64,000 bases of DNA from an uncultured Desulfobacter sp. (GTDB lineage Bacteria; Desulfobacterota; Desulfobacteria; Desulfobacterales; Desulfobacteraceae). The notes under the pieces were generated by a model. The model ran no database searches. It was not told where the DNA came from and saw only the letters and a program-made list of their open reading frames with translations. The position numbers were made by a program, and so were the translations under genes. The stretch lies in assembly GCA_963665095.1 (NCBI GenBank), contig OY762069.1, forward strand, positions 928,001 to 992,000. The letters are read 5' to 3'. This document shows positions 329 through 28,383 of the stretch, piece after piece (positions within the stretch are counted from its first letter, which is position 1; each line of letters begins with the position of its first letter).

Positions 329-453
329 CTTGAACAAGCCGTTGCAGCCGATCCGGGGTTCTAGCGGCTTTTTGAAAGTGCTCGGTTTTCGAAAATGTTT
401 GGCTTTTACAATCTGCTCGGCACAAGCCCCGGGCGGCTGAACTACACGTTATA
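329..453 (+). other. attC site (long, ~125 nt); R' split by a group II intron
   Basis: CTTGAAC...GCCGATCCGGGG/CCCCGGGCGGC hairpin...GTTATA|intron|C. Confidence 0.85.
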
Positions 454-2707
454 GTGCGACACGATGTTGCATGATTGTATGTATAGGAGGTAAATGTAAG
501 ACACTGAATATACTCGGTGTATCCCCACCGGTTCCCTAGGTGAGCGTGCTATCGTTGCGCTGATGACGGGGTGCGAAGCCTCACCGACAATGTACCGAAT
601 CGGGTTTGAATGGCGACAGGAGAACCCCTCCGGAAATCCCATCCGGTTAAGGGCTAGGGTCGGACAATATGGCAAGATTAATCGAAGAGCTTTAAGCGCC
701 GTCAGTGAGCGCCTAACCTACTGGGATTAACAGGTTATATGTATACTTCCCTGCGTTTGTATACATGAACAGGATGCAAGTCTTCTAACTGCTTGCACGG
801 GATCTTAAGTTTCATCGGCGTAGAGGCCTGCCTAAGTTGTCCATTAAGAGCAATCATGTGGAACGTGGAAACGTTGTCACTCCCCATGTGCAATACATGG
901 AAAGCTAACCGCAAGGCAAGCCTGTGGAGGGGCAGCAGTAAGAATTCGGAAAAAAGCAAACGCCGTTTTGTAATGAAACGGATAGAGCATGAAACATGGC
1001 TCACGTAAAACCCAAAACCTTCGATTTTGGAGACATGCGTGCAGACGTCCGATTGGTGTTGACTTGCGAGAGAATTTGGAGAACCGCTTAAGATGGGAAA
1101 GCAAATGACGGCTTCGGCTGGTGCACCTGTCGACTCTGCTAAGAAATGGGCATCCATTGTTTGGAACAAAGCCCGGGCTGAAGTTAGAAGGCTGCAAATG
1201 CGTATCGCAAAGGCTGTAAAGGAAGAAAGATGGGGCAAAGTCAAAGCCCTTCAGTACTTACTTACTCATTCGTTCTACGCCAAGGCCTTGGCTGTCAAAC
1301 GAGTGACCTCAAATAAAGGGAAAAAGACTCCAGGCGTAGACGGTGTTTTATGGAAAGGCGCCCGAGCCAAATGGCAGGCTGTTTTCAGCCTGCAAAGACG
1401 AGGTTATAGACCGCAACCGCTAAGGCGGATTTATATCCCCAAAAAAAACGGTAAGAAACGTCCTTTAAGCATTCCAACAATGCTTTGCAGAGCTATGCAG
1501 GCGCTGTTCAAGTTAGCCTTGGCCCCAGTAGCGGAGACCATAGGAGATCGTAATTCTTACGGCTTCCGTGAAGGCCGCAGTTGTGCAGATGCAATTGCAG
1601 CAGCGTTCAATGCACTCTCCAAGCCTAATTCGGCTACATGGATATTGGAAGCGGACATCAAAGGGTGTTATGACAACATCAGTCAGGAATGGATGTTGGA
1701 AAATATCCCCATGGACAAAGTCGTTCTTAAAAAGTGGTTGACGGCAGGGTATGTGGAAGACGGCAAGCTATACCCTTCGCGCAAAGGAACCCCACAGGGC
1801 GGGATTATCAGTCCCACCTTGTCGAATTTAACCCTCGACGGACTGGAAAAAGCCGTTCATGATGCAGTTCCCCGCCGATGCAGGGTTAATTTTGTTCGAT
1901 ATGCAGATGACTTTATCGTCACAGGCAAGTCCAAACGCCTGCTCGAAGAACAGGTCAAACCCGCAGTCGAAGCGTTTCTAACTGAACGTGGTCTATCATT
2001 ATCTGAAGAAAAGACCATGATCACGCATATAACAGACGGATTTACGTTCCTTGGCCAAACTTTTCGAAAAACCGGAAATGTACTGCACATCACCCCGGCA
2101 AAAAAGGGAGTTCTCGCCTTTAAAGAAAAGCTCAGTGAACTGATCCATAAACATGCCGGCGGTCCATTGGAACCATTGGTCAAAAAGTTAAACCAGACCC
2201 TCCGGGGTTGGGGAAACTATCACCGGCACGTAGTCTCATCGGAAACATTTTCTCTTATTGATACGTTTGTTTACGAACAGCTGTGGAGAATGATTAAAAA
2301 GCGTCACCGGAAGAAATCCTCAAAATGGTTGAAAAACCGTTACTGGACTGACGGAAAACACAAGTGGATATTCACTGTCAAGAGCCGAAATAAAAAAGGG
2401 CCTTGCAGATATCACGTCATTCACCTAATTTCACTAGGGATAAAACGATATATCAAAATTAAAGCAGATGCAAATCCATATGATCCCGAATACAGCTATT
2501 ATTTCTGGCGTAGACGGAATCAAAAGGAGTCACGGTTACTCCCTACGCTGTCAGCCAGGGAATACCGCCAAACGCAAGCTGCATGAGGTAAACAGCCGGG
2601 GCGTCCCACAAGGTCGTCCTTTATAAACGCTTGAGCCGTATGACGGGAAACTGTCACGTACGGTTCTTAGGGGGGAAAGGGGCAGAGATGCCCCTGACCT
2701 ACCCGAT
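454..2707 (+). mobile_element. Full-length group II intron (CL/IIB-like) inserted in the attC R' box
   Basis: 5' GTGCGACACG; domain V GAGCCGTATGACGGGAAACTGTCACGTACGGTTC; 3' end ACCCGAT. Removing it restores GTTATAC, the exact complement of this cassette's R'' GTATAAC (4244-4250). Confidence 0.92.
1093..2586 (+). CDS. ltrA: Group II intron reverse transcriptase/maturase with no HNH endonuclease domain
   Basis: RVT_N-like VRRLQMRIAKA, GKKTPGVDG, GTPQGGIISP, YADD and maturase region; ends after NPYDPEY with no Cys/His En motif. Confidence 0.95.
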   Translation: MGKQMTASAGAPVDSAKKWASIVWNKARAEVRRLQMRIAKAVKEERWGKVKALQYLLTHSFYAKALAVKRVTSNKGKKTPGVDGVLWKGARAKWQAVFSLQRRGYRPQPLRRIYIPKKNGKKRPLSIPTMLCRAMQALFKLALAPVAETIGDRNSYGFREGRSCADAIAAAFNALSKPNSATWILEADIKGCYDNISQEWMLENIPMDKVVLKKWLTAGYVEDGKLYPSRKGTPQGGIISPTLSNLTLDGLEKAVHDAVPRRCRVNFVRYADDFIVTGKSKRLLEEQVKPAVEAFLTERGLSLSEEKTMITHITDGFTFLGQTFRKTGNVLHITPAKKGVLAFKEKLSELIHKHAGGPLEPLVKKLNQTLRGWGNYHRHVVSSETFSLIDTFVYEQLWRMIKKRHRKKSSKWLKNRYWTDGKHKWIFTVKSRNKKGPCRYHVIHLISLGIKRYIKIKADANPYDPEYSYYFWRRRNQKESRLLPTLSAREYRQTQAA

Positions 2708-2741
2708 CAATAGATATGTTAAATAAAATTGGAGCAAACAA

Positions 2742-4214
2742 ATGGAAGAGCAAAAAACACATAGGCTGTGGGTTCCTGTTGAATTCAGTCAAGAATGGCT
2801 TGAGTGTGATACTTCTACGATAGATGATATATCCCCTTCATGGATTGACAGAAGGGAAATCCTTCAAACTAACTCAAAAGAATATCAGGAATTTATTACC
2901 GAACTCAAACGTGAACATGCAATTGAGACCGGAATTGTAGAACGAATGTACGATCTTGAAAAAGGCATAACTGAGACATTTATCAAAAAAGGGTTTGTTG
3001 AATCATACATTAGTCATAATGATACAAACGTTCCAGTTCCGAAATTGCTTTCTCATTTATCCGATCATCTTGATGCAGTTGATTTTGTCTTTGATGTAGT
3101 TAAAGAAAATAGAGATTTAACAATTGGTTTTATAAAAGAACTTCATGCACTCGTAACTCGTAACCAGGAGTATGCCGAAGGAAGAGACCAATTTGGCAGT
3201 AGAACTAAAATAGATCTGAGAAAAGGTGCTTTCAAAATCCTTGAAAATAATCCAACTCGTGAAGATGGAACTAAAATATTATATTGTCCACCTGATCATG
3301 TTCAGGCCGAAATGGATAATCTGATTTCTATTTACAATGATGCCGAGAATAAAAACATCCATCCATTAATTTGTGCTACCTGGTTTCACCATGCATTCAC
3401 TACAATTCACCCATTTCAAGATGGCAATGGTCGTATTGCAAGACTAATTGCAAGTTTGATTTTGATTAAACATGGCCTTTTTCCTTTTACAGTTCTAAGA
3501 GAAGAGGCCAAAGCTAAATATATTGATGCTCTTGAAAAGGCCGATGCACATGAATTTCAACCTCTAATAGACTATTTTGCCGAAGTCCAAAAAAGACATA
3601 TTGAAAAGGCTCTAAATCTAAAAGAGGTTTCAAGCTCATCATTTGATGAAGTAGCAGATATATTTTCAGGCAAGATTGAGAATTGGCAAAAGAAAAAGGT
3701 TGCTGAGAGAGAGAAACTGCTTGATAAAGCCAGAATAGATGTTTTTAACTTTTGCCTCAAACATTTGAATCAGATTTCTGATCAACTTAGCGCCAAACTC
3801 AATGGAAATGCGAACATTACTATTCAAAAATGTTCCCCAGATAAGGATGAAAGACAAGATTTTTATTATGGTCAAATAATTAAATACGCTAAGAAACATG
3901 ATTACTATTTTAACAGGAATTTTCCAAAGGGTTGGTTAACTTTTAGAGTTGAATTAGCAGAAAATAAAAAATATCAACTTTGTGTTACTATCCACCACTA
4001 TGGCTATGAGGATAGCACCTTAGCTATTGGAGCATTTCTTGAATATTTGATACCTCATGAAAGCAATGATCGAATAGACGAAGCCCTTCCCTTAGAAATT
4101 AAACCTCATGTTATTTCCCTGACTGGAGATATAATGACGAAAGAAAAGAACATCGCAGTTTTTATAAAAAATGCAGTTACCTTAACTATGGCTCAAATTG
4201 CAAGTGAACTATAG
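2742..4214 (+). CDS. Fic family protein (cassette gene)
   Basis: HPFQDGNGRIAR matches the canonical Fic motif. Confidence 0.9.
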   Translation: MEEQKTHRLWVPVEFSQEWLECDTSTIDDISPSWIDRREILQTNSKEYQEFITELKREHAIETGIVERMYDLEKGITETFIKKGFVESYISHNDTNVPVPKLLSHLSDHLDAVDFVFDVVKENRDLTIGFIKELHALVTRNQEYAEGRDQFGSRTKIDLRKGAFKILENNPTREDGTKILYCPPDHVQAEMDNLISIYNDAENKNIHPLICATWFHHAFTTIHPFQDGNGRIARLIASLILIKHGLFPFTVLREEAKAKYIDALEKADAHEFQPLIDYFAEVQKRHIEKALNLKEVSSSSFDEVADIFSGKIENWQKKKVAEREKLLDKARIDVFNFCLKHLNQISDQLSAKLNGNANITIQKCSPDKDERQDFYYGQIIKYAKKHDYYFNRNFPKGWLTFRVELAENKKYQLCVTIHHYGYEDSTLAIGAFLEYLIPHESNDRIDEALPLEIKPHVISLTGDIMTKEKNIAVFIKNAVTLTMAQIASEL

Positions 4215-4243
4215 CGAACTATGAAAAGAAGAGAGCAATAAAT

Positions 4244-4250
4244 GTATAAC
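4244..4250 (+). other. attC R'' box of the Fic cassette, separated from an attC body by an IS91 remnant
   Basis: GTATAAC is complementary to GTTATAC at the cassette start. Confidence 0.7.
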
Positions 4251-5396
4251 AAGGTTATGTACGATATCGAGCACTGCCGACGCGGAGAATTTGGCACCCA
4301 CTGGGAGCTATGCGACACATGCGGCCACCTTGAAAAAGGATACAACTCCTGCCGAAACCGCCATTGTCCGGGTTGAAACAATATCGCCCGTCACAGATGG
4401 GTGACGGCCAGGATCAACGATCTGCTTCCGGTGTCCTATCACCACTGCGTTTTCACATTGCCGGATATCTTCAACCCTTTGTGCCGGTTCAACCGGCGGG
4501 TAATGTATGACCTGTTGTTTGAAAGCGCCTCCCAGACCCTGCTGGAATTCGGGGAGAATCCAAAGCGTCTTGGAGCCAAGATCGGGTTCTACGGTATCCT
4601 CCACACCTGGGGCGGCAAACTCTGGCTGCATCCCCACATCCATTTCATTGTCACTGCAGGCGGAATAAACACTTATGGGGAATGGGTGGAGCCCAAGTAC
4701 AGCTCAACATTCCTGTTTCCGGTCAAAGCGCTTTCAAATGTATTCAGGGCAAAGTTCCTTAACGGCCTTATTGCAGCCCACGGTCGAGGACGATTAAACA
4801 TCCCGGATGAACTGGCTCATTTTTCAAAACCCTGCGCATTCAGGCAATGGCTGTACCATACCGCTCCAAAAGACTGGGTGGTATATTCCAAACCACCATT
4901 CTCAGGTCCAGCCGAAGTCGTTAAATATATCGGTAGATACACCCATTCAACAGCCATCAGCAACAACAGGATTATATCCGTTAACAACGAGACTGTGGAG
5001 TTCTGGTTTAAAAACACCCGGAATAAATCCAAGTGGGAAACAACTTCTTTACCGGTAATGAGCTTCATTGATCGTTTCCTTTTGCATGTTCTTCCAAAAC
5101 ACTTTCATCGGATCAGATATTATGGGTTTCTGGCCAACGGGCAGGCAGGGCGAAATATATCGGAAATACGCCAGGCATTGAATGACCGGGATACCCCTGA
5201 TCCTGAACCCCTGAAAGAACAGACGCCTCAATGCCCGGCCTGCGGCAAAGGGAACATGATAACGATCCTGGTGCTGGACGGTCATGGCAACGTGGTGAAA
5301 GACGACTTACCAAAAACCAAGGCCAAGCAAATTCCGGCTAAATCAGGGGAACCATTAAAAGCTTTACTTTGGAAACAATTACCGATATCAAAATAG
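4251..5396 (+). pseudogene. IS91-family (HUH rolling-circle) transposase, 5'-truncated with an internal stop
   Basis: KVMYDIEHCRRG...CDTCGH...YNSCRNRHCPG* Zn-binding domain, then HCVFTLP, LHTWG...HPHIH, YIGRY, FHRIRYYGFL. Confidence 0.9.
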
Positions 5397-5613
5397 GCAG
5401 TTCCCTGTCAGGGACTCGTATCGGCAATCCGCTCCGGTACCAGGTTTTTCGGCTCTTTTTCAAGCCTGACCGGATAAAATAGAAGGAAGAATCTTAATGC
5501 TCACTCAATTTTACCAGGCAAATTTTAAAATCTGTGCTGTTAAATCTAAGTTTGAAAAAAAGGATTCCCCTGCTTTTACCCAAGAAATCAACTGCGAGGC
5601 TTCGACCCGGTTA

Positions 5614-5702
5614 ATGTAACAAAGAGTTGAAGACGGAAAAATACCCGCCGGGTTTTACGTTGTTTTTGGGTTATAATTTTTCCGCTTAACTCAACGTTGC
5701 AC
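5614..5702 (+). other. attC site directly after the IS91 element end
   Basis: ATGTAAC AAAGAGTTGAAGACGGAAAAAT...ATTTTTCCGCTTAACTCAAC GTTGCAC imperfect palindrome. Confidence 0.75.
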
Positions 5703-7486: not shown

Positions 7487-8400
7487 CTATAACAAAACGC
7501 TGCTCGTGCCCAGATAAATCCGAATCGTTGGGATTCCACGGAATAGGAGGATGAAACTCGATATTGTTACCCAGTGGGTGAAAGTCCCACATGAGCAAAG
7601 CATAGCCGGCAGCTCATTAGTGAAATCCACAGGCAAAACTGGTAACGGAAGTCTGATGCTGGATGGAACAAGATTGCAGGCTCTGTACTGAGCCCCGAAA
7701 AATGTATAGTTGTGGTCCACTAGGATAAACCCTGCTTGCAGGGGGAAAGCCGACGCATTGTAGCGTGACGGAAGGCAGCAGACTTACAGATGCTATGGCA
7801 AGCCTGTAAGTCACCACCGGGGTCTTCGACCAGGGCATGTTCTCAAAGGGGTAGCTCAGGAACTGGGGAGAGCCGGTTGGTTCCTTGCAGAAACAGAACG
7901 GTATCAGGAGTTCCAGCCATGGGCAAAATCCCGGCATCTGTATGGAAACCCTATCCTGCAGATGAGTTCACCACTGGTGAAGACACAAACGTTAAAGCAG
8001 GGCAATACGCCACGAAAGCCTGGAAGCACTGGCTTGGCCGAAGGCACCGAAACGGTAAACTTAACTTCAAGAAGTTTAGCAGACTTCTTAATTGGTACCC
8101 ATTACCGCGGCCTCGAATTGTTCACAATATCTAAAAGGACCTGCAGGGCAGCAAAGTTATGCGCCGATCAGGGTGTCGCCTGATTGGTTGACGGCTCGGT
8201 AAAAAGAGCCTGAATCGAGGAACCGTATGAGGGAAATCTTCACGTACGGATCTGTGGGGAGGGCGTCGGGTAACCGATGCCTTTACCCGGAAGGCCGACC
8301 CGGGGTTCTATCGGCTTTTCGAAAGTCCTTGGTTTTCGAAAAACCTTGGCTTTTACAATCTGCTCGGCCAAGCCACGGGCGGCTGAACTACACGTTATGT
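7487..8400 (+). other. attC site (~126 nt when reconstituted) split by a class E-like intron
   Basis: R'' CTATAAC (complement of GTTATAG at 6601); body 8292-8400 nearly identical to attC 329-453; R' GTTATGT. Confidence 0.85.
7504..8291 (+). mobile_element. Class E-like group II intron with almost the whole ORF deleted
   Basis: (TC)GTGCCCAGATAAATCC 5' end; domain V GAGGAACCGTATGAGGGAAATCTTCACGTACGG; ends TACCCGGA; residual ORF tail AWKHWL...PLPRPRIVHNI. Confidence 0.85.
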
Positions 8401-9746: not shown

Positions 9747-11512
9747 TCGTGCCCAGATAAATCCGAATCGTTGGGATTCAACCGGACAGGAGGATGAAAT
9801 TCGATAATGTTACCCAGTGGGTGTAAGTCCCACATGAACAAAGCTTAGCCGGCAGTTCATTAGTGAAATCCACAGGCAAAGCCGGAGACGGAGGTCTGAA
9901 GCTGGATGGAACAAGATTGCAGGCTCTGCACTGAGCCCCGAAAAATGTATAGTTGTGGTCCATAAGGATAAACCCTGAAAGTGCGGGGGGAAAGCCGACG
10001 CATTCCAGCGTGACGGAAGGCAGCAGACTTACAGGCGCTATGGCAAGCCTGGGAGTCACCATCGGGGTCTTAGACCAGGGCATGTTCTCAAAGGGGTAGC
10101 TCGGGAACTGGGGAGGTCCGAATGCCTCCTTTTGCAGAAACGGTAAGGTGGATACCGTCCGGAAGGTAAAACACCTGAGGCAGCAGGAATCTCTCACTCC
10201 TGATGCTTGAAAAAGAAAAGTGGGAGGAAAATAAGGTACCGGGGGAGGATAGTTAATAGCGAACGAGCCTGGGAAGGACATTCGGAAGTCTTAGCTGATC
10301 ATAATACTGATGTTCAGGGGGGAATAAAACCCGAACGGCAAGGCGGGGAAGTGGTGCCCGAAGCGACCCGCTGAAGGAAAGGAGAGGCAGGGTATAACGT
10401 TTTTCCGGCAGGAACTATGGGAGACTCCCAGAGGTCACAAACCATATCAACGGACAGCCGGGAAATTGCGTCGCAGACAGCTATGAAATCCAAGGGAAAC
10501 ACAAAAGAACGGATAGCCGAACCTCTACCGATACTGGTGCCGGAGTCGTCGCTTGTCCATATCAGGACAATGGCAAAACAGGACCTACAGATGACGTTTA
10601 CATCTCTGGTCCACAAAGTTGACCTGTTCCTGCTGAATAAATCGTTTCGACAGTTGTGTAAAAACAGTGCCACCGGAGTAGACAAGGTCACGGTGGACAA
10701 GGGACCCCCCAGGGTGGAGTGATTTCGCCGGTACTCAGTAATATATTCCTGCACTATGTGCTGGACGACTGGTTTGCAAAAGTGGTTCAACCCCGGTTGA
10801 AGGGTAAAAGCTTTCTGATCAGGTTTGCCGATGACTTCATCGTCGGACTGCAGCTGGAATCAGATGCCAAAAGATTGTTGGAAGTTTTGCCAAGGCGGTT
10901 CAACCGCTACACTCTTGAACTTCATCCGAAAAAGACACGCCTGATTGCATTCGGAAAACCGGCCCGGAAGGGAAAGCCACAGGGGACGTTCGATTTCCTC
11001 GGGTTCACGTATTACTGGGGCAAAAGCCTTAAAGGCTACTGGGTGATCAAGAAGAAAACCACCCGCAAAAGGCGCAATCGGTTCATGCGGATGCTGTGGA
11101 GCTGGTGCAAGAAGCACAGGCATGACCCTATACGCGGTCAGCAGGAAACCTTGTGCAGCAAGTTGATGGGATTTTATCAATATTTCGGAGTACGGAGCAA
11201 TTTTAAGGTGCTGGAGGAGGTGTACGAATATGCTGCCACAGCCTGGAAACATTGGCTTGGCCAAAGGCATAGGAACGGGATATTGAACTACAAAAAGTTC
11301 AGCAGACTTCTAACCGGACATCCCCTGCCCAGGCCCCGGATTGTTCACAATATCTGAAAGGCTGCAAGGGCAGCAAAGTTATGCGCCAATCGGGGTGTCG
11401 CCTGATTGGTCGATGGCCCGGTAAAAGGGCCGGAGTCGAGGAACCGTACGAGGGAAATCTTCACGTACGGGTCTGTGGGGAGGGCGTCGGGTAACCGATG
11501 CCTTTACCCGGA
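9747..11512 (+). mobile_element. Class E-like group II intron with an internally deleted RT ORF
   Basis: Same termini as 7504-8291; domain V GAGGAACCGTACGAGGGAAATCTTCACGTACGG. Confidence 0.87.
10417..11357 (+). pseudogene. ltrA: Group II intron RT/maturase with central RT subdomains deleted, out of frame
   Basis: KNSATGVDKVT is joined directly to the (GTPQGG)VISPVLSNIFLHYVLD...RFADDF...FDFLGF segment. Confidence 0.88.
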
Positions 11513-14206: not shown

Positions 14207-15211
14207 GTGCGACACGAGGTCGCATTATTGGCTGTTTGGCGGGCCAGTCGGTCCTGACCAAACCCGGCATTCTCCTGCCGGTACCCTATGTGGCATGCGG
14301 TTACCGGTGCATCCGGCAACGGTGTGAAGCCCAACCGACAAAGTACCGAATTCCGCAGGTGCGGAAGGGGTGGAAGCCGTGAGGCGGATACCCTCCTGGA
14401 AGCCTCATTCCGGGTGAGGGCAAGGGTTTGAATGATATGGTCAAATTAATTGAATGTTCCGTAAGTACCGTCAGGGAGAACAAGCTAAAGAGGCTGGTAA
14501 CCTTGGACCAAAAGGTGAGCGGTCAGGTTGCAGGTTTCTTAGCTGCCTGCACGTAGATGTTGCGCCGCCGGTGCTTAAGGACAGGCCTAAGTCATCCATT
14601 AATTGGCAATAATGTGGAACGTGGAAAGTCGGCCATGTCCCTATGGATAAGATGATCCTCACCAAATGTCTGGCTGCAGGGTTTATGGAAAATGGTAAGC
14701 TCTTTCCAACAGGTCGGGGGACACCCCAGGGAGGCATTGCCTCCCCGATACTTGCCAACATGGTTCTGGACGGCATTGAAGAAACTGCTAAATCCGTTGC
14801 ACCTGTCAGAGACCGGCGTAACGGTAAGGACATCAGTTCTAAAATCAACGTTGTCCGGTACACTGATGACTTCATCGTTACCGGTGCCACCCGGGAACTT
14901 CTTGAAGATAAGGTCAAACCGGCAATAATCAGCTTTCTTTCGGAACGGGATCTTTCCCTGTGATGCCAATCCTTTTGATCCGGAACACCAACAATACTTC
15001 CGGACAAGACGTGTGAAACCTAAGATGATCCCAGTCACAGCTGCCGAGGAAATATGTGATGGAATAACTGTAAATTTCAGTATTGGCAAGGGAAAACAGT
15101 CGGGCGGCCCCGCAAGGCTTAGTCTTAGAAATGCTTGAGCCGTATGACGGGAAACTGTCATGTACGGTTCTGAGGGGGGAAAGGAACTGTAAAGTTCCTG
15201 ACCTACCCGAT
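14207..15211 (+). mobile_element. CL/IIB-like group II intron, internally deleted; RT fragment at 14643-14963
   Basis: GTGCGACACG...domain V GAGCCGTATGACGGGAAACTGTCATGTACGGTTC...ACCCGAT; fragment has GTPQGGIASP and YTDD. Confidence 0.88.
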
Positions 15212-15955: not shown

Positions 15956-16708
15956 GCACAATAGGGGCAGGACTCCCCATTACTGAGGAGCCCTCCCACA
16001 CCATCCGGCATACGGATCTCGTACCAAGGCGGTTCGGCTGGTATGAATAAAATCAGTTGTAGGTTATCCCACCGATTTTATCGGGTTTTGGGCAAAGTCT
16101 TGCTATGGAAATTTCGGCCACTGCCGCATTATTCCCATAAAATCCTTTTACTTACTCACCACAACCATTTACCCAAGCCATTCGGCCCGGGTACCGTTCA
16201 GGCCTTCATCGGGGTGAGGCCTCCGGGTGTACTTCTCCCATGCGGTCAGGACCAGTTACCCGGCCCTCAGCCAATCCGGCACATGGGAGATCTCCCGGGG
16301 TAAACACGTGTCTTTCAGTACGTGAATGCCGGATTTACGGACATACCCTGTAATGGATAGAGGACTTCACCTTGTTGTGCAGGCTCGTCCAGGTATGTGC
16401 GCCTTATATCCGATTCCTGTACGTCATCCCGTACCTTCGTGGTACCTTGCCTCAGCAAGGCGGCTTCCTCCCGAAGCACCGTCACCGGTACCCCGTTGCA
16501 CTACCACTACACCCTTCGCCTCCATCCGGCTGGGTCTAAGACTTGCCAAAGGCATTGAAATCGTTTACGTTTGACTCACTTTTAAGAACACGTGCCGTGC
16601 CCGGCACACACAAAACGCTTCAGGTCGAAAGACCTTGGTTTCTGAAAAGAATTTAATTCGGGGAAGTCCTTGGTTTTAGTCTCCGGGCGGCTGAGCTCCC
16701 CGTTCTCG
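15956..16708 (+). other. attC site (~104 nt when reconstituted); R'' split by a IIC intron and R' followed by a CL intron
   Basis: GCACA|intron|ACAAAACGCTTCAG...GGGCGGCTGAGCTCCCC GTTCTCG. Confidence 0.75.
15961..16609 (-). mobile_element. ORF-less group IIC-attC intron (649 nt)
   Basis: Bottom strand starts GTGTGCCGGGCACGG; domain V GAACCGCCTTGGTACGAGATCCGTATGCCGG (CGC triad); ends CCCTAT; target TTGT/T. Confidence 0.88.
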
Positions 16709-17773
16709 GTGCGACACGAGGTCGCATTATTGGCTGTTTGGCGGGCCAGTCGGTCCTGACCAAACCCGGCATTCTCCTGCCGGTACCATAGGTGGCATGC
16801 GGTTCCCGGTGCATCCGGCAACGGTGTGAAGCCCAAACGACAAAGTACCGAATTCCGCAGCTGCGGAAGGGGTGGAAGCCGTGAGGCGGATACCCTCCTG
16901 GAAGCCTCAATCCGGGTGAGGGCAAGGGTTTGGATGATATGGTCAAAGTAGTTGAATGTTCCGTAAGTACCGTCAGGGAGAACAAGCTAAAGAGGCTGGT
17001 AAGCTTGGACCAAAAGGTGAGCGGTCAGGTTGCAGGTTTCGGAACTGGCTGCACGGAGATGTTGCGCCGCCGGTGCTTAAGGGCAGACCTAAGTCATCCA
17101 TAAATTGGCAATAATGCGGAACGTGGAAACCCCGTATCTTCGCCGGGAGTATTCGGCAGGTGAAACCGTAAGGCACACTGATGGAGGTGCGGGCGTAAGA
17201 TCCAGGAAAAAGCGAATGCCGTCTTGTAATGAGATGGATACGGATTGAGGCGTATATCCCCAACATTACCCGGCCCGAAAGGGAACTGACGTCCTGCGGG
17301 TGTGACTACAGACACACCCGGGCAGGTGTTTCTTTGTGAGAGAGTTTGGAGAATCTTTGAGGATGGGAAAGCAAATGACGGCAATGGCTGGTGCGCCCAT
17401 CAGCAGCTTTACGCTGTTAAAAGACTGTAGATACGTATCGCAAAGGTTGTTAAAGTAGCACACGGGATATACGCCAGAGGTTCTTTCAAAAGGATGCATT
17501 TTCTTTTGACTCGGAAAAAGAACAGTACTTTCCGAGAGAATGCTCAAGGACATATGCTATGAATTAACTGTAAATTTCATTATTGTCAGGGCCGTCTTGA
17601 AAATGCAGCCAAATCCCCGGTTTGAAAATGTATGTTCTTAGCTGGTTTTTCTTCTCTTAAAAATCAAATTTAAAAATTTCGTCTTCTTCATTTTTTTCCT
17701 TTCTTTGCCCTCTGCTTTTTTCCGTACATACTGATCTTATTCATGTCTGATTTGAATCGGAGGCAATATGTAG

Positions 17774-18340
17774 ATGGGACTACTCAAGAAAAGAAGGTGC
17801 CGAAATTGTAGAAGATTATTCGCTCCTAATCCAAGAAATATAGACTCTCAAAAATACTGTTCCAGATCTGAGTGCAGAAAAGCCAGCAAAAGGTGCAGCC
17901 AGAAAAAATGGCTGAACAAGCCTGAAAATCGAAACTACTTTTGTGGGCCTGCCCATGTTGAACGTGTTCAGGAATGGAGAAAGAAGAATCCCGGATATTG
18001 GAAGAAGACCAAAAGCCCAGATACGTTACAAGACTCGATATGTCCCCAACAGGCTGAAAATAAACAGGATTCAACGCAATTCATGGACAATGCGTTACAA
18101 GATTTCTTACGGGCGCAACCTCCTGTCATTATAGGGTTAATCGCCAACTTTACAGGCAGTGCGTTACAAGATGACATCGCTTCCACGCTCCTTCGTATGA
18201 AAAAATACGGGCAAGACATTTTATGTTCACAACCCCAAAAAGAAGGAGAGCAAAATGATTGCAAAGGCCCCCATTTTACCATCCAGGGTTCGAAAAACAC
18301 CCCAAAGCTTCAGTTGGATCGATCATCGCCTGGTGCGTGA
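17774..18340 (+). CDS. Hypothetical Cys-rich protein (IS21 passenger)
   Basis: CRNC...YCSRSEC putative Zn site; overlaps the next ORF. Confidence 0.7.
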   Translation: MGLLKKRRCRNCRRLFAPNPRNIDSQKYCSRSECRKASKRCSQKKWLNKPENRNYFCGPAHVERVQEWRKKNPGYWKKTKSPDTLQDSICPQQAENKQDSTQFMDNALQDFLRAQPPVIIGLIANFTGSALQDDIASTLLRMKKYGQDILCSQPQKEGEQNDCKGPHFTIQGSKNTPKLQLDRSSPGA

Positions 18341-18641
18341 ACGGCACATTGACAGGTGTACACACTCCCAGTCCGCCCTATATCTGTTTCTGGTGTGTGT
18401 GGCCGACAGTCAAGGCATCAGCTACTATGGAGATAAGGCGATCATGGATCGGCTGTGCATGGATTCTGATGGCCTGAAGACAGCACGTTCCGGGTTAATA
18501 CAGAATGGGCTGATTGCCTGGCAGAGACCTATTTACCAGGTGCTTGCCCTTGACCCTGCTCCTGGTAAATCAAAACGGCACGGCTCCATGCTGCGTCTTT
18601 CAGATATTCTAAAAGCAGCAGCGGAGGGCAACCATGATTGA
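18255..18641 (+). CDS. Hypothetical winged-helix-like protein (IS21 passenger)
   Basis: FSWIDHRL...ALYLFLVCVAD..G.SYY; overlaps the istA start. Confidence 0.7.
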   Translation: MIAKAPILPSRVRKTPQSFSWIDHRLVRERHIDRCTHSQSALYLFLVCVADSQGISYYGDKAIMDRLCMDSDGLKTARSGLIQNGLIAWQRPIYQVLALDPAPGKSKRHGSMLRLSDILKAAAEGNHD

Positions 18642-19608
18642 TTACGAAACCTATGTTCAAATCAGAAATTACTTTACCCGAGACGGCCTGACATACAGCC
18701 AGATTGCCAATGCCCTTGATCTGGACCCCAGGACAGTTGCCAGGTGGGCCAACCTGAAAAGGTACCAGCCCAGACAGTCAGCCCCCAGAGAAAGCAAGCT
18801 TGATCCGTATAAGAACGCCATCCTGCATATGCTTGAAAAACATCCCTACAGTTCCCGCCAGATATTTCAACGAATCACCCAGGATGGTTTTGCCGGGGGC
18901 ATCACCATTGTTGAGGATTATGTCAGGAAGGTGCGGCCGCCCAAAACAAAGGCGTATTTGAAACTGAGTTTTGCTCCGGGTGAAGCTGCCCAGGTGGACT
19001 GGGGTTCTTATAGTACAGTAAGGGTGGGCAACACGACCCGGCGGTTGAGCTTTTTTGTGATGGTGATGTGCCACAGCCGCATGATGTACGTTGAGTTCAC
19101 GGTCTCCCAGACCATGGAGCATTTTTTAGGCTGCCACCAGAATGCATTTGAGTTTTTTGGAAAGGTGCCGGAAAAGGTCATGGTGGACAATCTCAAATCC
19201 GCTGTTCTAAAAAGACTGCTGGGGAAAGCCCCGGTCTTCAACCCCAGATACCTTGATTTTGCAGATTATTACGGATTTACAATTGTTCCCTGTAATGTGC
19301 GCAAGGGTAATGAAAAAGGCCGGGTTGAAAATGCTGTGGGCTATGTCAAAAAGAATCTGCTCAACGGTCTTGAAATCCCTGATTTTAAGATCATGGAGCC
19401 CACCTGCAAACACTGGCTTGATACTGTCGCCAATGTCAGAACCCACGGAGAGACCGGTCAAAAGCCCGCATGAGAATGATCACAAAAAATCATGGAAAAA
19501 TTAAAGATAATTTGCAAGATATGCCAGGGATGAGGCAGAAGCTCCCCCGTTTATCTCGCAAATAATCAATGGAACTTCTGCCCCTATTACCCTAACAGGG
19601 CAGGAGAT

Positions 19609-20184
19609 ATGCTATCAGAACTTATTAAAAACAAAAATCTTTTTTTCCATCTTTACGAAATCGATAAAAATACAGCAAAACAGTACAGACAGTTGCCTTG
19701 TCCGCATTGTGGAGGCCCCTTATATTTCAGCAATTACATGCGCAAGCCCCGGGGAGAGCCTGAGGGCGTGCCGGAGGAATTCTTTATTCAGTTCAGCCTA
19801 TGTTGTGGAACCGAAGGGTGTCGCAAAAGATTGATGCCGCCGTCCTGCCGTTTTCTGGGGAGAAAAGTCTACTGGTTTGCAGTTATTCTGTGTGTTTTAA
19901 CAGACTGGCAAAATACCAATGAAAAAATCACCGTTTATGATTTGTCCATACGAACTGGCATTAGCCGGAACACAATAAACCGCTGGCTTGCCTTTTTTCA
20001 GGATACATTTCCAGTGAGCCGAACCTGGCGAAGGCTTCGGGGGCAGATATCCGCTGGTGTCAGTAACAGCCGTCTGCCGTCAAGTTTCATCAATTATTGC
20101 CGGGCGGTGAAATCCAACGCCGAAAACGCACTTGTATCAAGCCTGATAATCTTATCAGGCGGGTCCAAAATCAGGGCCGGATAA
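19609..20184 (+). CDS. Putative Zn-finger/HTH protein (DUF6431-like)
   Basis: CPHCGG...FSLCC...CRKR..P...RFLGRKVY...ISRNTINRW. Confidence 0.7.
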   Translation: MLSELIKNKNLFFHLYEIDKNTAKQYRQLPCPHCGGPLYFSNYMRKPRGEPEGVPEEFFIQFSLCCGTEGCRKRLMPPSCRFLGRKVYWFAVILCVLTDWQNTNEKITVYDLSIRTGISRNTINRWLAFFQDTFPVSRTWRRLRGQISAGVSNSRLPSSFINYCRAVKSNAENALVSSLIILSGGSKIRAG

Positions 20185-20290
20185 TCTCGCGCAGAGGATG
20201 AACATAGACAAATATATGCAGGCTGTTTTACCACCTGATTTCAGACGTTGATCCGAAATTTTAACCTGAAATTAAAAAGGAGCCTGATTT

Positions 20291-21736
20291 ATGAGTGGTA
20301 AAACACAGCACCCGGCAGACCTGTGGGCATTATTTCGCTTTTCGGTTATCGGCGGTTTACTGGCACGCCCTCCGGCAAAGGGAGAGTTGCAAAATGAACT
20401 GACCCGGCTCGCAGGTCAAATCTATTCTCATCCTGTGACGAACAAACCGACCTGTTTTCATTTTTCCACAATTGAGGCCTGGTATTACAGGGCAAAAAAT
20501 TGCCAGGACCCAATTCTGGCTCTGGGCCGTAAAGTTCGTTCAGATATGGGCAAATCCACAGCATTGAATGCTGAATTGATCCGCCTTCTTGGTGTCCAGT
20601 ACAACACTTATCCGCAATGGAGCTATCAGCTTCATTGCGACAACCTGGCAGCTGAAATCGCTGAACAGGGCCTGTGTGAGAATCCGCCGTCCTATGCAAG
20701 TGTGAGAAGGCGTATGGTTGAACGGGGTTGGAGAAAAAAGGCTTCCAAGAACAAAAATCAAACATCCGGACAGAAATCAGCTTTTAAGCGATTAGAAACG
20801 TATGAAGTCCGTAGTTATGAAACCGAAAACATCCATGAATTATGGCATCTGGACTTTCACGAATGCAGCAGGCGCGTGGTGGACGAAAAAGGTCAGTGGC
20901 ATACGCCCAAGGCATTGTGCATTCTTGATGATCGCTCCCGTCTGTGTTGTCATATTCAATGGTATTTGAATGAAACGGCAGAGGTTTTGATCCACGGCTT
21001 GTCCCAGGCGTTTTACAAAAGAGGGCTTCCCAGAGCCTTGATGACAGATAATGGTTCTGCCATGATTGCTCATGAAACCGGCAACGGACTTAAACGATTG
21101 GGCGTCAGTCATGAGACCACGTTGCCATACTCGCCCTATCAAAATGGGAAGCAGGAAGCCTTTTGGGGTACACTTGAAGGCCGTTTGATCGCCATGCTGA
21201 GCCGGATGGATTCTTTGACCCTGGTATATTTAAATCAGGTCTCCCAGGCCTGGATCGAGATGGAATACAACAAGTCAACCCATGATGAAATTCATATGTC
21301 GCCATTGCAATGCGCCCTTGACGGCAAGGATGTGTCACGTCCTGCACCGGAACCTGAACAGCTTCAATTTTCGTTTACAGCCTGTGAATCCAGAAAACAG
21401 CGTCTGTCCGATGGTACCATCTCTTTGATGGGCATCCGGTTTGAAATCCCTTCACGGTTTAATCATATCCAGCGTCTTCATGTCTGTTTTTGCTCCTGGG
21501 ATAAATCGGTTGCCTGGCTGATAGATAAACGAACCGGAAATAAGCTTGCCGCAATTTATCCCCAGGACAAGACAAAGAATGCTTCAGCAATCCGTCGTAT
21601 CAAATCCACTCCGGATGAAATTAACCCTGGCCATGAAACCCTGTCCGGATCAGAACCGGCCCTGCTTAAAAAGCTCTTGTCCGATTATGCAGCAACCGGA
21701 ATGCCTTGTGCCTACTTGCCAATGGAGGAAAAGTGA
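20291..21736 (+). CDS. DDE integrase-type (rve, Mu/TnsB-like) transposase
   Basis: ALFRFSVIG, WHLDFH, LDDRSR, RGLP.ALMTDNGSAM, PYSPYQNGKQE. Confidence 0.9.
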   Translation: MSGKTQHPADLWALFRFSVIGGLLARPPAKGELQNELTRLAGQIYSHPVTNKPTCFHFSTIEAWYYRAKNCQDPILALGRKVRSDMGKSTALNAELIRLLGVQYNTYPQWSYQLHCDNLAAEIAEQGLCENPPSYASVRRRMVERGWRKKASKNKNQTSGQKSAFKRLETYEVRSYETENIHELWHLDFHECSRRVVDEKGQWHTPKALCILDDRSRLCCHIQWYLNETAEVLIHGLSQAFYKRGLPRALMTDNGSAMIAHETGNGLKRLGVSHETTLPYSPYQNGKQEAFWGTLEGRLIAMLSRMDSLTLVYLNQVSQAWIEMEYNKSTHDEIHMSPLQCALDGKDVSRPAPEPEQLQFSFTACESRKQRLSDGTISLMGIRFEIPSRFNHIQRLHVCFCSWDKSVAWLIDKRTGNKLAAIYPQDKTKNASAIRRIKSTPDEINPGHETLSGSEPALLKKLLSDYAATGMPCAYLPMEEK

Positions 21737-22560
21737 TGAACAGCAAACGATTATTGGCTTATTATGGATTGAAGTACAATCCTTTTTTACCAAATATTCC
21801 TGTGGACTCATTATGGCATCCACCCCGGATGGAGGCATTTATTACACGCCTTGAAAATATGACCATGAACGGTGGATTTGCATTAATCGCCGGTGAACCC
21901 GGTCTTGGCAAATCCAAGACACTACAGGCGATTGCCCATCAGCTTGGCAAGCTTGATGAAGTCGTTGTCGGCGTTATGGAGCGCCCCCAAAGCAGCGTGG
22001 CCGATTTCTATCGGGAAATGGGGACACTGTTTGGTGTCAATTTGAGTCCGGCCAACCGTTACGGAGGGTTCAAAGATCTGCGGCAACGATGGAAAAATCA
22101 TATTAAAACAACCCTGTTCAGACCCGTCCTGCTCATTGATGAGGCTCAGGAAATGCTTACCGGATGCCTGAATGAGCTTCGGTTGCTCAACAGTATGGAT
22201 TTTGACTCCCAGAATTTATTGACCACCATTATCTGTGGTGATACCCGGCTGCCGGAACGGTTCAGAACCAGTGCATTGGTAGCCCTGGGGAGTCGACTCC
22301 GGTTCCGGTTAAAATTGGATCCTTATACCCGGGAAGAATTGTTGGATTATATAGCGCATTGCCTAAATCAGGCCGGAGCTCCTCAACTCATGACAAAACC
22401 TTTAATCACCGCTTTGGTAGAGCACTGTACAGGAAACTTACGGGTCCTCAATAATATGTCGGCAGAACTGCTTGAAGTGGGCGTTCAAAGAGAGCTGCCG
22501 CAACTGGATGAGAAACTTTTCATAGAGCTTTTTTCACTGAAACCGTCGCCAACCAGATAA
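21736..22560 (+). CDS. ExeA-like AAA ATPase (MuB/TnsC-like partner)
   Basis: YGLKYNPF; Walker A GEPGLGKS; Walker B LLIDEAQ. Confidence 0.88.
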   Translation: MNSKRLLAYYGLKYNPFLPNIPVDSLWHPPRMEAFITRLENMTMNGGFALIAGEPGLGKSKTLQAIAHQLGKLDEVVVGVMERPQSSVADFYREMGTLFGVNLSPANRYGGFKDLRQRWKNHIKTTLFRPVLLIDEAQEMLTGCLNELRLLNSMDFDSQNLLTTIICGDTRLPERFRTSALVALGSRLRFRLKLDPYTREELLDYIAHCLNQAGAPQLMTKPLITALVEHCTGNLRVLNNMSAELLEVGVQRELPQLDEKLFIELFSLKPSPTR

Positions 22561-22571
22561 GAGGTATAAAA

Positions 22572-22814
22572 ATGACAATCAATGAAACACAACTTGAAAA
22601 AACAATGGCTGAAATTGTCGACGAGCTGGGCAATCTGGTCATGGAGTTGATCCTTGTCAGTTTAAAAAAAATAAACTCGGAAAATCATCTTTTGACAGAA
22701 TTGCTGGAGATCAAACAAGAGGAACAAAGAGAAAATGAATTTTATGGTTTTGGTGAAACGGAGCCGGGACATCCTGGGGAGGAAACCCGGCAAGGGATAG
22801 CCAAAAGCAGGTAG
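22572..22814 (+). CDS. Small hypothetical protein inside the transposon
   Basis: GAGG RBS; 80 aa; 3' end overlaps the conserved structured element. Confidence 0.45.
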   Translation: MTINETQLEKTMAEIVDELGNLVMELILVSLKKINSENHLLTELLEIKQEEQRENEFYGFGETEPGHPGEETRQGIAKSR

Positions 22815-22933
22815 CATTGAATAATGCGCCGGGGGAAGCGGGGTTGACCTGCTTCCCCTTTCTGTATTATTCAAGCTTTCCTGCTCATGCCTTAAAAAAC
22901 CCAATAAAATCAGTCGGAGCGCAGCGACATCTG
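22752..22933. ncRNA. Candidate structured RNA/DNA element, copy 1
   Basis: Closely similar to 37533-37707, with compensatory changes in the hairpins. Confidence 0.5.
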
Positions 22934-23645
22934 CTAATCATTGAAAATACAGTTATGCCTTTCCCTGATTTATCCTGATTGTCGCTCCATTGATTATCGT
23001 GCTTCCTCTCAGCAGAGATGTATGCCCTGGAATTGCCCCACCTATACCCTCTGCCGTCAGAACCCTATGATATCGGTGTGGTAAAGCAGGTACGGGCTTC
23101 AAGACAGTACAGGGTAGTCATCGATACAAATGCTTACACAGTACCCGCCCAGCTGGCAGGGGTGGCTTTGACTGCCAAGCTTTACCCTGATCGGATCTGC
23201 TTTTACCATGAAGACAAGTTGGTTGCCCGCCATGTCAGATCCTATGGCCGCAAAAACGACCTTGAAGATCCTGATCACTCTAAAATCCTTTTGAGCCAGC
23301 GCAAAAAGGCCAGAGACCAGGCAATTTATATGCGTTTTTTAAGCCTCTCTGACAAGGCCCGGGAGTATTACAGGCAATTGCAGAACAGGCGGCTTAACGC
23401 CTCCCATCATGTACGGCAAATCGTGGCCTTGAGTGAAATCTACTCCCGGGAACAAGTTGCCATGGCCATTGAAGATGCCTTTAAGTTCTCTGCATTCTCA
23501 TGTGAATACATCGCCAACCTCCTTGAGCAGCGGGTTCGGTCTCCCCAGGAGCCCGGAGCCCTGCATGTTACACATAAAGCAGATTTACTGAACCTGACAA
23601 TCCAGGAGCCTGATCTTAATATTTATACCGCCATAGGAGATAAAA

Positions 23646-24380
23646 ATGCCTGATCTTGAGAAATGCCTGTCCCACTTAAAACTACCTTATATCAGGGAAA
23701 ACTATGAGTCAGTGGCTACCCTGGCTGCCCAGAAGCAATGGAGCCACGTTCAATATCTATCAGAGCTTGCCAGGCATGAATCACTACTGCGCCATGATAA
23801 AACCATCCAGCGCCGTATCCGTATGGCCAAGTTCCCGGTAATCAAAACCCTGGACCAGTTCAACTGGTCATGGCCCAGAAAAATCAATCAGGCTCAGATC
23901 CAGAATCTGTTCAGACTCAAGTTCATTGAAGAAAAGGGTAACATTATCGTGATCGGCCCGGTCGGTGTTGGGAAAACACATATTGCGACTGCTTTAGGTT
24001 ACCAGGCCTGCCTGAAAAACCATACGGTTCTGTTCTCTTCTGCCATTGATATCGTCAACAATCTGGTGGCAGCCCAGAAGGCGGGTCAGTTAAAGCAGGA
24101 ACTGAGAAAATACCTCAAGCCAACTTTGTTGATCATGGATGAACTGGGCTACCTGCCCATTGACAAGATTGGGGCAGACCTGTTGTTCCAAATTATCAGT
24201 CAGCGCTATGAGCAAGGAGCCATCATAATAACCACAAACCGGGTGTTCAAAGATTGGCCGGAGATCTTCAACAATGACATGACATTAACATCAGCTTTGC
24301 TGGACAGGCTTCTTCACCACACCGAGCCTGTGGTCATTGAGGGTAAGAGTTTTAGAATGAAAGATGTGACGGAAGAATAA
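23646..24380 (+). CDS. istB: IS21 helper ATPase IstB
   Basis: GPVGVGKT, LIMDELGY, ALLDRLLHH, IEGKSFR. Confidence 0.95.
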   Translation: MPDLEKCLSHLKLPYIRENYESVATLAAQKQWSHVQYLSELARHESLLRHDKTIQRRIRMAKFPVIKTLDQFNWSWPRKINQAQIQNLFRLKFIEEKGNIIVIGPVGVGKTHIATALGYQACLKNHTVLFSSAIDIVNNLVAAQKAGQLKQELRKYLKPTLLIMDELGYLPIDKIGADLLFQIISQRYEQGAIIITTNRVFKDWPEIFNNDMTLTSALLDRLLHHTEPVVIEGKSFRMKDVTEE

Positions 24381-24620
24381 CAAAGCCGAGGCCGGTCTAC
24401 ATGCATCTGGAGGCCGGCCCTTTAATCGCCTACATTTTTAAACCGGGAGATTTATGACATGTTCACGCCCCGCCTGACAATTATTGCTGAAACAACCGGA
24501 CGGCCCCGCAAGGCTTAGTCTTAGAAATGCTTGAGCCGTATGACGGGAAACTGTCACGTACGGTTCTGAGGGGGCCTGGGGTAGATAACTACCCCCGGCT
24601 ACCCGATCCTAAAAACACCA

Positions 24621-25228: not shown

Positions 25229-25462
25229 TATTGGCACAATAGGGATAGGACTCCCCATTACTGAGGAGCCCTCCTACACCACCCGGCATACGGATCTCGT
25301 ACCAAGGCGGTTCGGCTGGTATGAATTAAATCAGTTGTAGGTTATCCCACCGATTTTATCGGGTTTTGGGCAAAGTCTTGCTATAGAAATTTCGGCCACT
25401 GCCGCATTATTCGTAAGCGTTTAAAGGACCCCATCTACAAATCATTAAAATGACATGAGAAG

Positions 25463-25825
25463 ATGAGCCAACTTTTAATGGAGGCCCATCATATGTCAGA
25501 AACAGAGAAGAAAAACCAAAAACTAACCCAGTTCTGGAAGTACCACATTAAACAATGGTCTGAATCGGGTATGTCCCAAAATGCATACTGCAGGCAAAAT
25601 GATTTAAGACCCAATCAATTTACATACTGGAAAATGAAATTCAAAAGCCAGGCACTTGTTCCAGAATTCGTCCAGGTCCCTTCAACGCAGATCAGCCAGG
25701 CGCTAAGCCTTTCTGAACGAAAAGGCTTAGCGTTGAATACAGATAACGGATTTCAGATCGAAATACCGGATGGCTTTTCCCAAACAACCCTGGCCCAGGT
25801 GCTTCAAGTATTGAGGCGGTGCTGA
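25463..25825 (+). CDS. tnpA: IS66 accessory protein TnpA
   Basis: W..HI..W..SG.SQ..YC HTH; first ORF of IS66. Confidence 0.85.
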   Translation: MSQLLMEAHHMSETEKKNQKLTQFWKYHIKQWSESGMSQNAYCRQNDLRPNQFTYWKMKFKSQALVPEFVQVPSTQISQALSLSERKGLALNTDNGFQIEIPDGFSQTTLAQVLQVLRRC

Positions 25826-26178
25826 TGTTTTCTTCCACCCAGAATTTAAAAATTCATATCGCACTTGGAAACACTGATATGCGCAAGGCCATTGATGGGC
25901 TATCCATACTTGTGAGCGAAAAATTAAATTTGGATCCATTTTCGGGACACATGTTTGTATTCTGTAACCGGAAACGGAATATATTGAAAATCCTGTATTG
26001 GGATCGCAATGGATTCTGTCTTTGGCACAAGCGCTTGGAAAAGGATTATTTCCAATGGCCCAAGTCAAAAGAACAGATTTTGACCATCGGAGCAAAAGAG
26101 CTTTCCTGGCTGATGGACGGACTTTCTATTCGTCAGGAAAAAGCACATAAATCATTAAAATATTCGGCTGTTTTTTGA
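25819..26178 (+). CDS. tnpB: IS66 accessory protein TnpB
   Basis: TDMRKAIDGL...FVFCNR...KILYWDRNGFCLWHKRLE. Confidence 0.95.
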   Translation: MLMFSSTQNLKIHIALGNTDMRKAIDGLSILVSEKLNLDPFSGHMFVFCNRKRNILKILYWDRNGFCLWHKRLEKDYFQWPKSKEQILTIGAKELSWLMDGLSIRQEKAHKSLKYSAVF

Positions 26179-26190
26179 TCATAAAAACTG

Positions 26191-27816: not shown

Positions 27817-28383
27817 AAAGGTGCGGTTGATACACCGCTTACCATTATTCCCATAAAATCCTTCTACTTACTCACCACAACCATTTACCCAAGCCATTCG
27901 GCCCGGGTACCGTTCAGGCCTTCATCGGGGTGAGGCCTCCGGGTGTACTTCTCCCATGCCAGGGAGGCCCGGCTCGTTTCCTCCGACTACTATGCCCTCT
28001 GCTGACTTCTCCCATGCGGTCAGGACCAGTTACCCGGCCCTCAGCCAATCCGGCACATGGGAGATCTCCCGGGGTAAACACGTGTCTTTCAGTACGTGAA
28101 TGCCGGATTTACGGACATACCCTGTAATGGATAGAGGACTTCACCTTGTTGTGCAGGCTCGTCCCGGTATGTGCGCCTTATATCCGATTCCTGTACGTCA
28201 CCCCGTACCTTCGTGGTACCTTGCCTCAGCAAGGCGGCTTCCTCCCGAAGCACCGTCACCGATACCCCGTTGCACTACCACTACGCCCTTCGCCTCCATC
28301 CGGCTGGGCCTAAGACTTGTCAAATGCTTTAAAATTCATTACATTTGACTCACTTTTAAGCTCACGTGCCGTGCCCGGCACAC

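Follow-up and report, generated by a model that had tools for sequence, protein, structure and literature searches.

The window, the whole stretch of 64,000 nucleotides analyzed here from the genome of an uncultured Desulfobacter sp. (G000; contig OY762069.1), lies within an integron array: a complete IntI is encoded ∼17 kb upstream of it (genome positions 910169-911113; TIGR02249 above cut-off), attC sites recur on the plus strand according to the attC inventory, and the cassettes are co-oriented. Near its beginning, a group II intron is inserted between an attC site and the cassette that follows. The features of this locus are listed below (window positions; negative numbers are distances upstream of the 5′ splice site).

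329..453, plus strand: upstream attC with R″ CTTGAAC (329-335), L-box hairpin, L′ T-G-A (438-440; −16 to −14), spacer, and R′ GTTATA (448-453)
441..445 (−13 to −9), plus strand: IBS2 position, poorly paired here (two of six in the register of the clade)
448..453, plus strand: IBS1, GTTATA, the first six bases of R′
454..2707, plus strand: group IIB1-type intron, present once in the genome and in the same orientation as the cassettes
702..710, plus strand: EBS2 loop with T-C-A linker (702-704) and EBS2 (about 706-710); loop geometry after PMC8643678
781..791, plus strand: Id3 loop with delta U783 (pairs with A695), EBS1 UCUAAC (784-789), and the stem TGCAAG/CTTGCA
823..823, plus strand: EBS3 (G), pairs with C2708
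1093..2586, plus strand: intron-encoded reverse transcriptase (RT)/maturase, 497 aa, with RVT_N, RVT_1, and GIIM; YADD present
2631..2707, plus strand: domains V-VI, from Rfam RF00029 and sequence, with AGC triad and bulged A
2708..4250, plus strand: downstream cassette with IBS3 (C2708), Fic-domain ORF (2742-4214), and R″ GTATAAC (4244-4250)
4249..5698, plus strand: IS91-like (Y2_Tnp) piece, four copies in the genome, abuts R″ and ends in its own attC-like site (about 5614-5702)

The upstream attC site has an attC score of 11.5 and its crossover, G|TT, at 448/449; its top strand was also folded as DNA. The 5′ part of its R″ comes from a neighboring repeated element (genome positions 926001-928451, second copy at 3.325 Mb). 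The attC site of the Fic cassette itself is cut by the IS91-like piece. An excess of sigma-70 promoters was looked for in positions 1-2800 of the window, and none was found.

The preliminary description had considered the element an intact intron without endonuclease, and on both counts it was right. It starts with GTGCG, ends with ACCCGAT, matches Rfam RF02012 (513-654) and RF00029 (2631-2707), and contains a full-length RT ORF including the YADD motif. A search at E values up to 0.05 detected no HNH domain in the 497-aa protein; in a 570-aa relative, HNH was detected at 5e-11. Among solved chains, the closest is that of a IIB maturase (6ME0_C, 562 aa; E 3e-163, residues 10-481), which leads by more than 400 bits and thereby places the protein among the chloroplast-like RTs. 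The ribozyme has the GUGYG...AY ends, the domain V AGC triad, and the domain VI bulged A of IIB1/CL introns, and the empty-site joint implies GT..AT boundaries; the 6-bp EBS1-IBS1 pairing, an EBS2-IBS2 pairing from a multibranch loop, EBS3-IBS3, and delta-delta′ were found at the level of the intron or its clade. The EBS2a-IBS2a pair of nearly all RT-encoding bacterial IIB1 introns is mostly absent from the attC clade. The CL1 label is provisional, as it follows from the likeness to Th.e.I3 and UHB.I2 and the tree contained no named CL1/CL2 references. Ribozyme, protein, and insertion site are not those of group IIC-attC introns: EBS2 is present, the class C copy is an outgroup at 33% identity, and instead of bottom-strand insertion at TTGT|T, the intron resides in the top strand, at R′. 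Judged from its sequence, the intron is thus a IIB ribozyme with IIB-type pairing and does not follow a IIC strategy.

As had been predicted, removal of the intron leaves GTTATA|C, the complement of GTATAAC at 4244-4250. This joint (453 joined to 2708) was present in contigs of two of eight sequencing runs (X3 and X4, from two studies; in the X4 contig, 160 upstream bases are identical) and absent from the other six (X1, X2, X5, X9, and the RNA runs X16 and X17). An intron-free homologue of the Fic cassette (L158) also begins with GTTATAC. Contig depth in runs X5 and X9 was ∼7-fold and ∼17-fold higher for the intron than for the cassette, and the intron contigs broke at 454, which suggests several intron copies in related strains, although depth is not a copy number. 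Both RNA runs contained contigs of a 97% identical relative of the intron, and the spliced junction was found in neither.

Relatives were scanned at 41 genome loci and at the best 80 of 150 metagenome loci. The 5′ end was called for 90 entries, of which 72 were kept, either because their proteins were at least 59% identical or because they were sister copies from the genome, and 63 remained after deduplication; L013 and L041 were left out because their 5′ ends had been mis-called. GTT is located at −5 or −6 in 50 of the 63 introns, at −7 in two, and is missing from eleven. Relatives at 42-52% identity are inserted elsewhere, mostly in transposase codons. A quick maximum likelihood tree built from 99 proteins unites the close relatives in a single clade of 76 rows (SH-aLRT 100) that spans several phyla. 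Eight rows without attC are nested within it (SH-aLRT 98, the nesting being based on this measure alone), and the two registers, −5 and −6, are interspersed, with four register changes among 41 rows. L099, L100, L102, L106, L107, L110, and L113 make up a subclade that has left attC and now resides in ORFs, one of them transposase-like. No member with more than 60% identity at high coverage was found among the best 40 of 1,662 plasmid matches, one record falling into the 60-80% identity band, so that the lineage looks environmental for now.

Outside the clade, a distant CL intron of the same genome (L123/L153; about 115.7-117.8 kb, minus strand) is 47% identical and starts with UUGCG. A separate CL intron of G211 (L149, L152, and L154; 49% identical, 570 aa, with HNH) occupies three attC sites, where it splits the GTT core at GT|T; pairing is retained by both its EBS1 (GCGUUU) and its EBS2a. 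This is independent convergence on R′. Some junctions within the data set are atypical. L095 is preceded by the end of another intron, and in L071 and L056 the G of attC is joined almost directly to a TT or TC intron start. The latter two had been candidates for sites defined by a hairpin only but are better read as junctions at attC sites with 8-nt spacers that suffered small deletions between repeats; use by IntI of a secondary GTT at the exon-intron border is the alternative. L002 and L004 share an identical intron and cassette behind different attC sites; they were dismissed as evidence of travel by IntI, as short-read assemblies can mis-pair the flanks of repeats.

Plain minimum free energy folding of 454-1010 was uninformative (z −0.13), and the EBS sites were located from covariation in the alignment of relatives; a column-by-column scan detected EBS1 only, since gaps hide EBS2. 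That no convincing EBS1 could be seen by eye, as noted earlier, is superseded: UCUAAC (784-789) pairs with GTTATA at five of six positions and occupies positions 4-9 of an 11-base loop closed by the Id3 stem, in which compensatory changes are visible. When GTT begins at −5, EBS1 ends with AACG (29/29 sites among the 63 introns), and when it begins at −6, with AAC (21/21, one of them a non-attC site); conversely, the ending indicates the expected register for 29 of 32 AACG-type and 21 of 24 AAC-type introns. Watson-Crick pairs between EBS1 and IBS1 amounted to 306 of 378 compared with 173.9 ± 12.3 after shuffling (63 introns). The excess held within register 6 alone (1 of 5000 shuffles) and was not significant within register 5 alone (154 versus 151; 256 of 5000 shuffles); all shuffle tests given here ignore kinship and overstate significance. 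EBS3 and IBS3 were paired in 28 of 43 rows (16.3 ± 2.8 shuffled). In register 6, EBS3 is G and the next base is C or T; in register 5, EBS3 is C and the next base mostly G. G823, thus, explains the C at 2708. For EBS2 and IBS2 (−13 to −8), 151 pairs were counted in 43 rows (92.0 ± 7.7 shuffled), on a diagonal shifted by one base, with weak pairing (2/6) at the site of the intron itself. Delta and delta′ form a Watson-Crick pair in 40 of 58 cases, and the EBS1 loops of non-attC sister introns are reprogrammed, with six of six positions paired. From covariation, it is EBS1 that sets the insertion 5 or 6 bases past the G of GTT. The first and penultimate intron bases also covary in the 63-intron set (G..A in 29, U..G in 17, and U..A in 1 of 47).

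Two further elements of the window had been described as copies of this intron:

14207..15211, plus strand: sister-family intron, internally deleted; EBS1 CUUAGC; junction GTTGGG+G|C
16709..24607, plus strand: sister-family ORF-less intron of about 1 kb with nested IS elements inside; EBS1 CGGAAC; junction GTTCTCG|C

They are 95% identical to each other over 421 nt but share only short patches (76-87%) with 454-2707 and, hence, represent a distinct, ORF-less sister family of ∼1 kb. The additional nucleotide seen at their junctions (GTTGGGG|C and GTTCTCG|C) exists, yet it appears to have two origins: the G was added in 14207-15211 (the intron-free paralogue has 6 nt) and looks native in 16709-24607 (the homologue has 7 nt). 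Likewise, the 3′ exon starts with C at all three elements of the window, but with T at two further sister copies (genome positions 2926568-2927565 and 3907494-3914029, at 2.93 and 3.91 Mb); across the clade, this base follows EBS3. The EBS3 of the two sister elements in the window is A, so that their C is a mismatch. L136, L138, and L139 (G001) belong to the same family, whose EBS1 variants (CCUAAC, CGGAAC, CUUAGC, and CUCAAC) track purine- or pyrimidine-rich R′ boxes, and the seventh base is G at three junctions. The family was likely moved in trans by the intact RT. Two more introns of the window (7506-8292 and 9749-11511, plus strand; Rfam D1D4-6), which we take to be class-E-like, are inserted into the top strand immediately behind R″ (at ...AACAAAACGCTGCTC|GTGCCC and at a comparable site); with them, the array has a third intron type at a third attC position. 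Deleted IIC-attC introns are present at 15961-16609 and 25240-28383 (minus strand), in the bottom strand at TTGT|, the second being interrupted by an IS66 element; the genome contains at least 11 IIC-attC 5′ ends.

In EcI5, mobility depends on a pair between −14 and an intron base that precedes EBS2 by two positions (Monachello et al, 2021; PMC8643678). IIB1 introns use this EBS2a-IBS2a pair on double-stranded targets. According to the same source, it is missing from only five of 69 bacterial IIB1 introns, its loss is expected in introns that target single-stranded DNA, and the RT reads exon bases at −15 to −18. In the attC lineage, EBS2a pairs with −14 in three of 46 rows, as opposed to seven of 11 outgroup rows and four of seven non-attC sisters. 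The EBS2a base is C in 44 of the 46 and faces A; it pairs with −13 in 15. At the site of 454-2707, C703 is mismatched with both A−14 and A−13. An invariant U702 could pair with A−14 in 40 of 46 rows, as a shifted EBS2a, its invariance precluding a covariation test. By sequence, EBS2a-IBS2a appears to be mostly absent from the attC lineage, and a shifted U-A pair is possible. In the three rows of the endonuclease-bearing attC intron of G211, EBS2a pairs at −13, as seen by eye.

The preference for attC is not accounted for by pairing alone. A total of 18,966 genomic sites equal the occupied one in their pairing with the EBS set (5, 2, and 1 pairs), and only 11 of 1,200 sampled (about 1%) score as attC. 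In contrast, an attC-like fold (score of at least 4) was found at 28 of 40 testable intron flanks and at 63 of 1498 random CGTTA sites; most of the other 12 flanks, by eye, are attC sites that the scorer missed or that another intron interrupts. The L′ bases G−21, C−20, G−18, T−16, and A−14 are spaced constantly relative to the splice site, whichever the register (40 of 45 sites), with the consequence that the attC sites of register-5 introns have an 8-base spacer and those of register-6 introns a 7-base spacer. Measured from L′ T-N-A to GTT, the spacer is 8 nt in 22 and 7 nt in three register-5 sites, and 7 nt in 18 and 8 nt in two register-6 sites, one of 46 sites falling outside the assignment. 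Free attC sites in register-5 hosts had 7-nt spacers in nine and 8-nt spacers in six cases; after three of these 15 rows had been dropped (two opposite-strand readings and one inside an intron), seven and five were left (Fisher p 0.006). Free attC sites of register-6 hosts mostly have 7-nt spacers (34 versus 7) and, hence, do not discriminate. A test of the ruler by independent contrasts comprised three contrasts only, none of them opposite, and was not significant (p 0.25-1).

A second determinant on single-stranded DNA, besides the pairing, is likely because L′ is at a fixed distance in both registers and EBS2a-IBS2a is mostly absent. The preliminary description had proposed that a IIB-like ribozyme targets the attC hairpin in the manner of IIC introns. 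Its premise, the lack of EBS1, proved wrong, as EBS1, EBS2, EBS3, and delta-delta′ covary with their targets, but the equally pairing sites show that pairing does not fully explain each target, and dependence of homing on the hairpin is possible. The account held here with some confidence is that an endonuclease-less IIB1 intron pairs its RNA with the single-stranded attC top strand while the RT reads L′ at a fixed distance. Reading of L′ bases by the RT is, on the whole, preferred to reading of a folded stem, a proposal given clearly less credence, for three reasons: this region is read by CL1 RTs, five bases provide enough specificity by count, and no complementary arm is present at two of the sites. 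In the folded-stem proposal, pairing would set the exact base and the RNP would recognize the top strand in its folded form, with the L-box stem, whose end is at about −14, being read as structure, as IIC introns do with terminator or attC stems. The DNA fold predicted for the top strand is paired at −15 to −24 (0.7-0.9) and low in pairing across IBS1, and a ruler is compatible with a stem at a fixed distance; yet L074 and L010 have no complementary upstream arm, and L074, an ectopic site without hairpin, retains T−16 and A−14. Loss of EBS2a would suit a −14 that is tied up in a stem, all the more as the pair is back in four of seven non-attC sisters, and a degenerate core (GTA in L116) is still targeted at the ruler distance. 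On the other hand, adding the five L′ bases reduces the 18,966 pairing-compatible sites to 42, which is nearly all the specificity needed (about eight of the 54 L′-motif sites listed are attC by eye), and reading of distal exon bases is an established property of CL1 RTs (PMC8643678). Sonbol and Siam voiced the same speculation on a folded top strand for UHB.I2 (PMC7923331). The nested subclade of eight rows resides in ordinary ORFs with low attC scores; T−16 and A−14 are not kept there, so that the specificity of the RT must have changed. Since conservation of the L′ bases is a general feature of attC and they are predicted to be paired, sequence and fold are not separable.

That pairing of EBS1, EBS2, and EBS3 is the sole targeting signal, attC being enriched because other insertions were purged, attC is harmless, and IntI shuffling spreads the introns, appears improbable, even more so than recognition of a stem. 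All three EBS do covary with the targets, sister lineages retarget through EBS change alone, and long ORFs make up about 83% of the genome; yet 4,275 of the 18,966 compatible sites are outside long ORFs, none of the 85 sites that pair better than the occupied one is attC-like or occupied, and the coupling of register and spacer is not predicted by selection. A bolder scenario, in which a IIB1 lineage swapped both EBS2a-IBS2a and the endonuclease for recognition of folded attC, with the stem as ruler, EBS1 re-tuned by one base for two spacers, and the intron as IntI cargo, is entertained only tentatively and seems rather doubtful; if true, structure-guided homing would have evolved independently of IIC introns.

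In the preferred account, the intron likely reverse-splices into the single-stranded top strand of attC by an RmInt1-like route. Its position is set by EBS pairing, as the covariation shows: EBS1 pairs with the R′ core, EBS3 with the next base, and EBS2 loosely with the L′-R′ spacer. The RT would supply the upstream ruler by reading L′; a folded hairpin may aid but would not be required. Without endonuclease and the EBS2a-IBS2a lock, the RNP would presumably need single-stranded DNA, exposed at a fork or extruded, and a host primer. In sedentary integrons, the bottom strand is mostly on the leading-strand template (PMC5371416), in which case the top strand would be exposed; fork orientation fits this for four of five copies but only two of three arrays, which is weak support. 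Insertion behind G|TT would spare recombination, and the intron may be transcribed and spliced with the cassettes. The attC crossover has been placed 5′ of the insertion point (PMC2727003). As the intron is 3′ of the crossover and changes only the seventh base of R′, it would leave with the next cassette; from this geometry, it may be regarded as the cargo of that cassette.

One precedent was identified in the open full-text literature, as far as its sources go: UHB.I2 from a soda-lake cassette array (Sonbol & Siam, 2021; PMC7923331), likewise a IIB1/CL1 intron without endonuclease, directly behind attC and in cassette orientation. Its ends (UUGCG...GU) are those of 17 relatives of 454-2707, and its Id3 loop, by eye, has an EBS1 ending with AACG, i.e., of the register-5 type. 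The authors' speculation on a top-strand hairpin concerned this one intron, and the accessible part of their study contains no lineage, covariation, register, or spacer rule. They reported the EBS3 bulge to be absent, whereas EBS3 covaries in the lineage of 454-2707; shared ancestry was judged by eye only, outside the tree. Group IIC-attC introns (S.ma.I2; PMC3001079, PMC4424553, and PMC7923331, in part), copies of which are in the same array, are also endonuclease-less and specialized for attC, but they have a IIC ribozyme without EBS2 and a class C protein (33% identical) and insert at TTGT|T of R″ in the bottom strand, in the orientation opposite to the cassettes. EcI5 and Th.e.I3/T.el4h (IIB1 with CL1 RT; PMC8643678 and PMC2882425, in part; PDB 6ME0_C) have the closest solved RT and share the EBS2-loop geometry and the RT-read bases upstream of IBS2, yet they keep endonuclease and EBS2a-IBS2a and use single sequence sites, whereas the attC lineage lacks both and uses a variable family of sites. 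RmInt1 (class D, IIB; PMC3898094 and PMC8643678, in part), which has neither endonuclease nor EBS2a-IBS2a and inserts into single-stranded DNA at forks, is likely the appropriate working model by analogy, although it differs in protein class, targets an IS, and has no known link to integrons in these sources. No description of the lineage, the register rule, or the loss of EBS2a was found in the open full-text literature, that is, outside subscription journals. A few non-IIC introns of integrons may be listed by Leon and Roy (2009).

In reviews, to the extent covered here, targeting of attC is a habit of class C introns; a IIB1 lineage that occurs across phyla and uses the other strand means convergence on the same site, and a single array accommodates three intron types at three attC positions. 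How a IIB RNP chooses single-stranded targets can be tested cheaply and directly through the rule linking register and spacer and through the loss of EBS2a; such tests also bear on whether structured DNA can replace an RNA-DNA lock. A sense-strand intron that leaves G|TT intact could be spliced from cassette transcripts and carried along by IntI, which would bear on the joint spread of introns and cassettes.
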